The position numbers and the translations under genes were made by a program. The notes beneath the pieces were generated by a model. It ran no database searches, was not told the origin of the DNA, and worked only from the letters and a program-made list of their open reading frames with translations. A stretch of DNA of 58,281 bases. Origin: an uncultured Eubacteriales bacterium (GTDB lineage: Bacteria; Acidobacteriota; Aminicenantia; Aminicenantales; Aminicenantaceae). The DNA lies in contig CAZSZS010000037.1 of the NCBI GenBank assembly GCA_964611275.1, positions 1 to 58,281 on the forward strand. The letters are read 5' to 3'. This document shows, piece by piece, positions 4,920-5,071 of the stretch; within the stretch, counting starts at the first letter, position 1; every line of letters starts with the position of its first letter.

Positions 4920-5035
4920 ATAATTTAATTATGTTATTTCAAAGAACAGTATATAAACTTATCTTCAAAAAATACTAACATCCGTTCTGGACCAAGTTCC
5001 GGGGAGCAGATAATTTTTATTATGTCACAGATTTT

Positions 5036-5071
5036 GCTTAATCTCGCTTAATTTGGCTTAATGGTGCTTAA
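5036..5071. repeat. Four GCTTAA hexamers at exact 10-bp period
   Basis: GCTTAA starts at 5036, 5046, 5056 and 5066, about 70 bp before the att duplicate. Confidence 0.85.

Follow-up and report, generated by a model that had tools for sequence, protein, structure and literature searches.

A conserved, helically phased GCTTAA array as a putative accessory arm site of elements integrated at tRNA anticodon loops in Aminicenantes

Four GCTTAA hexamers at an exact 10-bp period lie inside a small islet in the DNA analysed here, a stretch of 58,281 nucleotides that we call the window. Judging from sequence comparison, we consider it likely that they form an accessory array, of bending or RDF type, in the P arm of elements that use a tyrosine integrase to enter tRNA anticodon loops, and that the copy in the window is a remnant, most likely an inactive one. 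The host of this element family is the order to which the window belongs, whose records are titled Candidatus Aminicenantes. Systems of this kind, with a lambda-type attachment site, are known; the family, the arm shared throughout the order and the fusion of an HTH_17 domain to the integrase were not found in the literature searched.

The stretch from 5031 to 5071 is attttGCTTAAtctcGCTTAAtttgGCTTAAtggtGCTTAA (as read out, gattttGCTTAAtctcGCTTAAtttgGCTTAAtggtGCTTAAagg). Direct reading of the plus strand places the hexamers at 5036-5041, 5046-5051, 5056-5061 and 5066-5071, which bears out the preliminary description of four GCTTAA repeats at 10-bp phase. The spacers, described there as four variable nucleotides, do differ (TCTC, TTTG and TGGT), but their first base, T, is as constant as the hexamer. 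The array ends 65 nt before the 51-nt duplicate of a tRNA part and 72 nt before the duplicated anticodon centre, so that the earlier figure of about 70 bp before attR was right. As a lone word GCTTAA is not enriched in the window (30 observed, 30.9 expected). When a four-fold recurrence was sought for any hexamer at any period from 7 to 12, the array was the sole instance in the window, and the same test found no phased array in 1000 Markov-1 shuffles of the window (0/1000) or in 58-kb sequences with the AT-rich composition of the islet (0/300). A three-repeat pattern with up to two mismatches matched the array locus and no other place in the 3.16-Mb genome.

The integration target is a tRNA-Arg(TCG) gene at 3608..3681 (+, ARAGORN), whose anticodon stem-loop, GGACTTCGAATCC, is the crossover core. 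The 3' half of this tRNA, from the anticodon stem on, belongs to the attL copy (3636..3686, +) of a 51-nt direct repeat (family D1 of the repeat search); the attR copy (5137..5187, +) begins with the anticodon-arm dyad GGATTTCGAATCC, with the anticodon centre at 5143, and the two copies are 92% identical. They differ at 4 of the 51 positions: in the displaced half at 5137-5187 a CT to TC change in the T-stem preserves pairing, and a G to T change in the acceptor would mismatch the present 5' half. It would thus seem that the displaced half either stems from a slightly different tRNA allele or has drifted. The islet between the repeats measures 1.45 kb and has a G+C content of about 30%, against about 47% in the flanks. 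It opens with a stub of the integrase-proximal (P') arm (3682..3736, +), recognised by its homology to the sequence that follows the tRNA in the element of a related genome, G002 (G002:C12:39428-39602 matches window 3563-3736), and this stub stops before the GTCACA pair of that element. The cargo consists of a Fic/DOC-domain gene (3756..4379, -; Pfam PF02661, E 6.9e-16) and an XRE-type HTH gene (4352..4825, -; Pfam HTH_3, E 6.5e-13). Upstream of the HTH gene, at 4835-4919, stand three palindromes (repeat family D2), two with the sequence ATACGAAATATAATTTCGT and one with ATATGAAATAATATTTCAT, at 33-bp spacing; there is overlap with the best promoter-like site (4860-4832, minus strand), and the palindromes probably serve as operators for the Fic-HTH pair. 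No integrase gene was found in the window. The array itself belongs to a truncated copy of a conserved arm block at 5021..5084 (+), which corresponds to positions 29-93 of the 96 positions of a sequence-only model of the block, R1 (E 3e-19; nhmmer E 6.5e-18). This copy holds one remaining TGTCACA-type site (5023..5029, +; alignment A1 and a motif scan of 3600-5200), a putative integrase arm-type site whose partner 11 bp upstream is absent, and it is followed by a GGGGAAAA box with an inverted repeat and a T run (5089..5114, +), which resembles a terminator (match at 5089-5104).

The block is not peculiar to the window. When window 3300-5500 was compared with 40 related genomes, the region 5021-5189, array and att duplicate together, was about 91% identical in three of them, at the distal end of 9-kb tRNA-Arg elements in G002 and G005 and at the end of a neighbouring element in G004, and the array part alone matched many loci, often several per genome. 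In these copies the block measures about 90 nt and consists of a TGTCACA-type repeat present twice at 11-bp spacing, a GCTTAA-type repeat present four times at 10-bp spacing, and GGAAAA; the consensus of the aligned copies is TAGAC..CCCC-(C/T)(G/A)TGTCACA-N4-TGTCACAGATTTT-GCTTAAaCtC-GCTTAATttG-GcTTAATGGT-GCTTAAAGGAAAA. A pattern scan over one genome per species yielded 27 further copies. Most come from records titled Candidatus Aminicenantes, Aminicenantales, Aminicenantaceae or Aminicenantia, the rest from one titled Acidobacteriota, one titled 'Bacterium' and five titled 'uncultured Eubacteriales', three of these five being genomes of the window's own genus. The records L032, L101 and L105 (CAZUXT010000029.1, CAZRGM010000032.1 and CAYWDH010000014.1) are the same as G004:C29, G002:C32 and G005:C14, and their title, 'uncultured Eubacteriales bacterium', appears to be taxonomically wrong. 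About 55 of the 82 pattern matches in genome contigs were unrelated 10-bp microsatellites and were set aside as not belonging to the family. A viral origin was likewise rejected, the pattern scan of IMG/VR having returned unrelated perfect microsatellites only.

With model R1 the block was found in 167 of the 246 genomes of the window's order and in 56 of its 68 genera, and a single genome can contain as many as 22 copies. No match at E<=1e-6 came from about 290 sampled genomes that belong to the phylum but not to the order, a sample that also serves as a control on the model. Conservation was measured on 49 copies found by overall similarity, though collected and aligned with a profile built from the seed alignment A1; in A1 itself the conservation of hexamers 1, 2 and 4 is inflated, as its 27 scanned copies came from a pattern that required them. 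In these 49 copies the G at model positions 43, 53, 63 and 73 and the TAA at 46-48, 56-58, 66-68 and 76-78 are conserved at 0.84-1.0, the 10-nt period is exact, the third repeat is the loosest, and the mean information is 1.44 bits in hexamer columns against 1.02 bits in spacer columns. Most blocks have no integrase nearby, so that part of this conservation could be due to recent common descent.

Several other identities of the block were considered and rejected. RNAalifold on 31 copies gave two trivial invariant pairs and no covariation, and Rfam returned only a sub-threshold tmRNA match on the tRNA-like part; neither a structured RNA nor a known RNA family is thus indicated, and the block therefore acts as DNA. 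As to integron attC sites, we found no consensus structure and no compensatory changes, and the integrases are of phage type with N-terminal extensions. A conserved gene just inside the block was excluded by ORF clustering from 40 copies, which gave no common neighbour. Some blocks face each other across a tRNA fragment (G028, G145), as the terminal inverted repeats of a transposon (e.g. Tn7-like) might; the elements are bounded by long tRNA direct repeats and there is a single block in G002, and this identity was rejected as well.

The position of the block relative to tRNA genes is tightly defined. Among 58 non-redundant full blocks, 53 have a tRNA or its 3' fragment within 230 nt on the side to which the block points (BLAST), and two more were recognised by eye. 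The fragments run from the 3' end to the anticodon arm, and the tRNAs involved are Arg (TCG, CCG, CCT), Ala, Val, Thr, Leu, Asp, Glu, Gln and His. The last hexamer lies 70-73 nt from the anticodon centre in 29 copies, 77-84 nt in seven, 93-94 nt in ten, 103-105 nt in three, 146 nt in three and 67 nt in one; above the 70-73 nt class the distances grow in steps of about 11 nt, approximately one helical turn. Within that class the distance is 72-73 nt when the tRNA is in sense and 70-71 nt when it is in antisense orientation, and the window, a sense case, has 72 nt. The GGGG[AGT]A box, which in the window forms the terminator-like hairpin at 5089-5104, falls into two similar classes: its distance from the anticodon centre is 50-52 nt in 18 copies and 61-62 nt in 11. 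In related genomes the 5' and 3' half-copies of tRNA-Arg overlap only in the anticodon stem-loop, which places the crossover there. In an attachment-site arm one would expect just this, an orientation that does not change with the direction of the tRNA and a distance from a palindromic core that follows the helical phase; the array stands less than about 150 bp from the core of an element enclosed by tRNA repeats, and its position and orientation relative to the core are constant in related elements. The preliminary description took the repeats for retained recombination-arm sites and proposed looking for them at other islands in tRNA-Arg(UCG). The same array, in the same orientation and at the same distance from the crossover, is present at such islands in G002, G004 and G027, which supports that proposal; it also accompanies islands in at least ten other tRNA genes, and is hardly ever found away from a tRNA piece.

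Two further arrangements were observed at tRNA-Arg genes. At L029 4138-4436, L127 5162-5456 and L121 11737-12033 two blocks confront each other with one tRNA-Arg fragment between them; one and the same anticodon loop apparently received elements from either side or in either orientation. At G011:C5:80402-83467, G027:C1, G039:C1 and G032:C253, copies of the 5' half of tRNA-Arg(TCG) (positions 1-41) are spaced at about 1 kb upstream of the intact gene, which points to islets of a second type, with the 5' half duplicated and no block.

Intact elements associate the block with a tyrosine integrase. In G002 a 9.2-kb element lies between tRNA and block; it opens beside the tRNA with a 448-aa integrase composed of an N-terminal HTH_17, a SAM-like and a Phage_integrase domain, and the block stands at the far end. 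The integrase of G005 is 88% identical to that of G002, and the layout of tRNA, integrase, cargo, block and att fragment recurs in G005:C5, G015:C34, G215 and G220. HTH_17 precedes the SAM-like and catalytic domains in G215 and G220 too, so that an integrase with extra N-terminal DNA-binding regions was seen in relatives of the islet only (G002, G215, G220); a gene in G124:C8 is the same fusion with an in-frame stop. In G058 the block stands beside a 5' fragment of tRNA-Glu(CTC), followed by an integrase in which Pfam calls no HTH_17. The fourteen integrases aligned have the same four parts, namely HTH_17, a linker, a segment of arm-binding type that is rich in beta structure, and the core-binding and catalytic domains; the arm-binding-like segment is visible in the alignment and is not called by Pfam, and a PDB sequence search with the integrase N-terminus gave nothing meaningful. 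No phage genes were found in the element parts examined. A link between the type of HTH_17 helix and the type of array was looked for and discarded, no correlation having been found: the recognition helices HPQTVYK, SLSTVYR and SRTTVYR differ in elements that carry the same GCTTAA array, and the nearly identical helix HPQTVYR of G130 goes with a degenerate array, so that co-variation does not support a contact between HTH_17 and the hexamers.

Just upstream of the integrase, at L018:2649-3167 and its homologues and in L019, L129, L130, L134 and L139, we also observed two small conserved genes. One encodes an HTH_36 winged-helix protein of 111-172 aa and adjoins the integrase gene in 5 of the 13 cases examined; it scores 26.1 bits against HTH_36 (cut-off 25) and 19.8 bits against RepA_N, below the cut-off of 30. 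The other encodes a protein of 67-95 aa with a zinc-finger-like CxxC...C...CPLW motif. A different paired motif, GGTCACAATTTGGTCACA, occurs near tRNA pieces and the end of a shorter integrase (L133 3626 and 5421; L126 8225, 9400 and 13459; L026 4893), and is probably the arm-type site of a sister integrase family.

The two repeats of the block behave as two classes of site. In G002, G005 (two elements), G015, G220, G215 and G123, a pair of the form GTCACA-N5-GTCACA-GATTT also adjoins the integrase gene at its 3' end, some 54-84 nt away from the tRNA piece. In divergent elements the pair is altered jointly in both arms: G130 has TGTGCCAC twice in the P arm and GTGTGACAG..TGTGCCACA in the P' arm, and G141 has ATAAACA..ATGAACA in the former and GCGAACA..ATAAACA in the latter; the P arm of G044 carries ATTCAAT twice. 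The TGTCACA pair is consequently likely to be the arm-type site of the integrase, since it is found in both arms and co-varies between them. The GCTTAA array does not share this behaviour and is confined to the integrase-distal arm, where its tandem sites, about one helical turn apart, lie between the arm-type pair and the core, as those of an RDF would. The 40-bp slot that it fills is occupied differently in divergent elements: by degenerate repeats in G130, by two palindromes in G141, and by A-tracts with 10-bp phasing in G044. Because its content differs among divergent elements, the slot looks from these alignments like an architectural, bending module, and because some of them, such as G141, have no phased repeats in it, the array is not indispensable to the family.

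In the P arm of lambda attP the arm-type sites P1 and P2 for Int are followed by the Xis sites X1-X1.5-X2, with Fis and IHF, and then by the core; the heterobivalent integrase finds arm-type sites in both arms, and Xis-type factors bind and bend the integrase-distal arm. Here, sequence comparison gives a conserved block directed towards the core at a helically quantised distance, with TGTCACA in both arms and the array in one. In an excised attP the order would be the TAGAC..CCCC box, the TGTCACA pair, four GCTTAA, GGAAAA, the GGGGAAAA box and the core, that is, the anticodon stem-loop about 72 bp past the last hexamer, with a second TGTCACA pair about 115-125 bp beyond the core, by the 3' end of the integrase gene. 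We propose that the arm-binding region of the integrase would occupy the TGTCACA sites, and that the four hexamers, on the same face of the helix, would bind four head-to-tail copies of a winged-helix protein, or at least bend directionally. Such a bend would fold the P arm so that integrase at the arm sites could reach the core 72 bp away, as Xis does on the P arm of lambda. Candidates for the array-binding protein are the HTH_17 fused to the integrase, the HTH_36 protein encoded just upstream of the integrase gene, or a host protein.

Other functions could be suggested for the hexamers. They might themselves be arm-type sites, bound by the arm-binding domain of the integrase like P'1-P'3 of lambda, which are also tandem 10-bp direct repeats near the core; four sites would suit the four protomers of a recombinase tetramer, and the block is linked to integrases in G002, G005, G015, G215 and G220. 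We find this quite unlikely, as GCTTAA is present in one arm and the adjoining GTCACA pair in both, co-varying within each element, and as the hexamers stay constant across integrases that are merely 35-50% identical; moreover, a GCTTAA block lies by a tRNA-Glu(CTC) whose other side bears an integrase of only 31% identity. Of the two options of the preliminary description, integrase arm or RDF sites, the RDF or accessory one thus fits better, and TGTCACA is the likelier integrase arm-type site. A serious competitor, though on balance also unlikely, is that no dedicated protein is involved and that phased TTAA or A-T tracts provide intrinsic curvature or flexibility for wrapping of the P arm. 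The 10-bp phased A-tracts without GCTTAA in the slot of G044, the favouring of directional bending by a TpA step once per helical turn and the steps of about 11 nt in the block-core distance all agree with this proposal, but curvature alone would not keep G and TAA at 0.84-1.0, at fixed positions, throughout the order, and TTAA, which contains a TpA step, is not a classical A-tract.

Lying in AT-rich DNA and repeated directly with helical phasing, the hexamers also recall the iterons of a replication origin, in this case one for the excised circle, bound by the HTH_36 or RepA_N-like protein encoded next to the integrase, which is conserved and whose match to HTH_36 is above threshold. The RepA_N match is below it, however, units of 10 bp are short for iterons, and neither a helicase nor a primase is a regular neighbour; an origin would have no need to keep a constant orientation and a constant, phased distance to the core whichever way the tRNA runs, and we saw no adjacent initiator combined with a function independent of the core. 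We regard an origin as very unlikely. Still more improbable is a promoter, UP element or operator of the first cargo gene. That gene is usually directed away from the block, which agrees with such a function, but its distance from the block varies from about 70 to more than 700 nt, the genes are unrelated, the fixed geometry is to the tRNA core and not to the gene, and in the window the promoter-like sites and three operators of the HTH gene stand at 4832-4957, clearly apart from the array, which no promoter-like match overlaps. Finally, many perfect 10-bp tandem repeats containing GCTTAA turned up in unrelated taxa in our collection scans, so that a chance repeat or a slippage microsatellite might be thought of; those microsatellites have identical spacers and no common flanks, whereas the spacers of the window array differ, shuffling never regenerated the array, and the entire block is kept in hundreds of copies. 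The shuffle test, the conservation of the block and the tRNA geometry together refute this origin, to which we give next to no credence.

An accessory array in the P arm, the reading we prefer, has parallels in known systems. As in lambda, the arm-type sites are followed towards the core by tandem sites about one helical turn apart; lambda differs in having three such sites, where the elements here have four; their core is a tRNA anticodon stem-loop, the integrase itself carries the Xis-type HTH_17, a separate xis gene was not identified, and binding to the array is putative. In mycobacteriophage L5, which integrates at a tRNA, attP has four phased sites, X1-X4, for Xis (gp36) between arm-type sites and core. 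The likeness to the present arrangement, four phased sites between arm-type sites and core of a tRNA-integrating element, is close, but the host phylum is different, the sequences are unrelated, and L5 is a phage, whereas the parts of our elements that were examined hold no phage genes. Winged-helix RDFs and their relatives (lambda Xis, RdfS, BldC) form head-to-tail oligomers with one DNA turn per protomer, and RdfS of ICEMlSymR7A, a tetramer, occupies 40 bp of attP immediately beside a putative integrase arm site, its sites having no consensus motif (PMC11963761). The 40-bp array of four units described here likewise directly adjoins a putative arm-type pair; unlike the RdfS sites it is strongly conserved, and no RdfS homologue was identified, the candidates being HTH_17 and HTH_36. 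Islander catalogues tDNA genomic islands (PMC4383910) in which an element with a tyrosine integrase interrupts a tRNA gene, re-forms it and displaces a 3' fragment to the opposite end, and the elements studied here share these features. Unlike those islands, they use a single arm of about 90 nt for at least ten tRNA genes in both tRNA orientations, and integrase-less remnants outnumber intact elements. Our search found no literature on Aminicenantes integrases or tRNA islands.

These comparisons provide a full, testable attachment-site map for one family of mobile elements in a lineage known only from metagenomes: the core, flanked by arm-type sites on either side, the accessory array of four units, one more conserved box, and spacings quantised by the helical turn. 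As a marker the block is compact as well; with its model of 96 positions, island ends and integration scars were located by the hundred throughout the order. Furthermore, the use of one arm for many tRNA targets in either orientation offers a natural experiment in which arm architecture and core specificity evolve separately.

As regards the copy in the window, homology to the family begins at 5021, inside the TGTCACA pair, so that a single GTCACA (5024-5029) is left there, and homology to the P' arm of G002 ends near 3736, before the GTCACA pair of that element. With the integrase-proximal pair gone, the window retains one of four GTCACA sites. The Fic-HTH module (3769-4921) recurs without a block in G024 and G015, and in G004 an orthologous module comes after a newer element's block and att fragment; the idea that G004 keeps the arm of the islet itself was rejected, 242 unrelated bases being found there in place of window 4921-5198. 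Because its arms are truncated and the Fic-HTH module is found elsewhere without a block, the islet is, on this comparative evidence, a mosaic remnant in which that module fills the interior of a G002-type element. The copy is probably mobile no longer, and the array most likely inactive, since the integrase and three of the four TGTCACA sites have been lost. The preliminary description held that survival of the repeats in an islet without integrase would favour trans-mobilisation. This was not supported: the arm is cut at 5021, the P' pair is missing, and the intact hexamers require no selection, because the entire 169-nt remnant is about 91% identical to its relatives, and the array of G002 itself has two altered hexamers. 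The missing integrase and the lone GTCACA site favour decay, and for the window this means an old mosaic Fic-HTH remnant, which is itself no evidence of trans-mobilisation.

The assembled contigs of the window's genome contain only distant integrases. At the edge of contig C160 (1-320) stands an integrase C-terminus that shares 45% identity with the G002 integrase across 42 aa; next come an arm-type pair (reverse complement GTCACAAATACGTAACA, ~155-171) and a 3' fragment of tRNA-Leu(CAA), so that a family integrase does exist in this genome, cut by the assembly. A helper integrase may consequently be present, but the islet lacks the sites that a helper would need. A bolder proposal, which we regard as unlikely, is an integron-like economy at Aminicenantes-type tRNA genes, in which short integrase-less cargo units with one universal P arm would be captured, stacked and perhaps moved in trans by a few integrases with HTH_17 as an inbuilt Xis-type domain, the four GCTTAA sites docking the four HTH_17 domains of one tetramer; if true, it would put the control of directionality inside the recombinase itself. 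In its favour, G215 has tandem units of 1-3 kb, each ending in a block and an att fragment, beside a single integrase, blocks outnumber family integrases several-fold, and a fragment of a family integrase stands at a contig edge in the window's genome. Against it, the tandem units examined have no second GTCACA pair, which looks more like decay. The same genome holds a second, decayed copy of the block (nhmmer E 6e-4), with no tRNA piece directly adjoining, on contig C7 at 10333-10386, and this copy includes the CAGGGCAAAA box.
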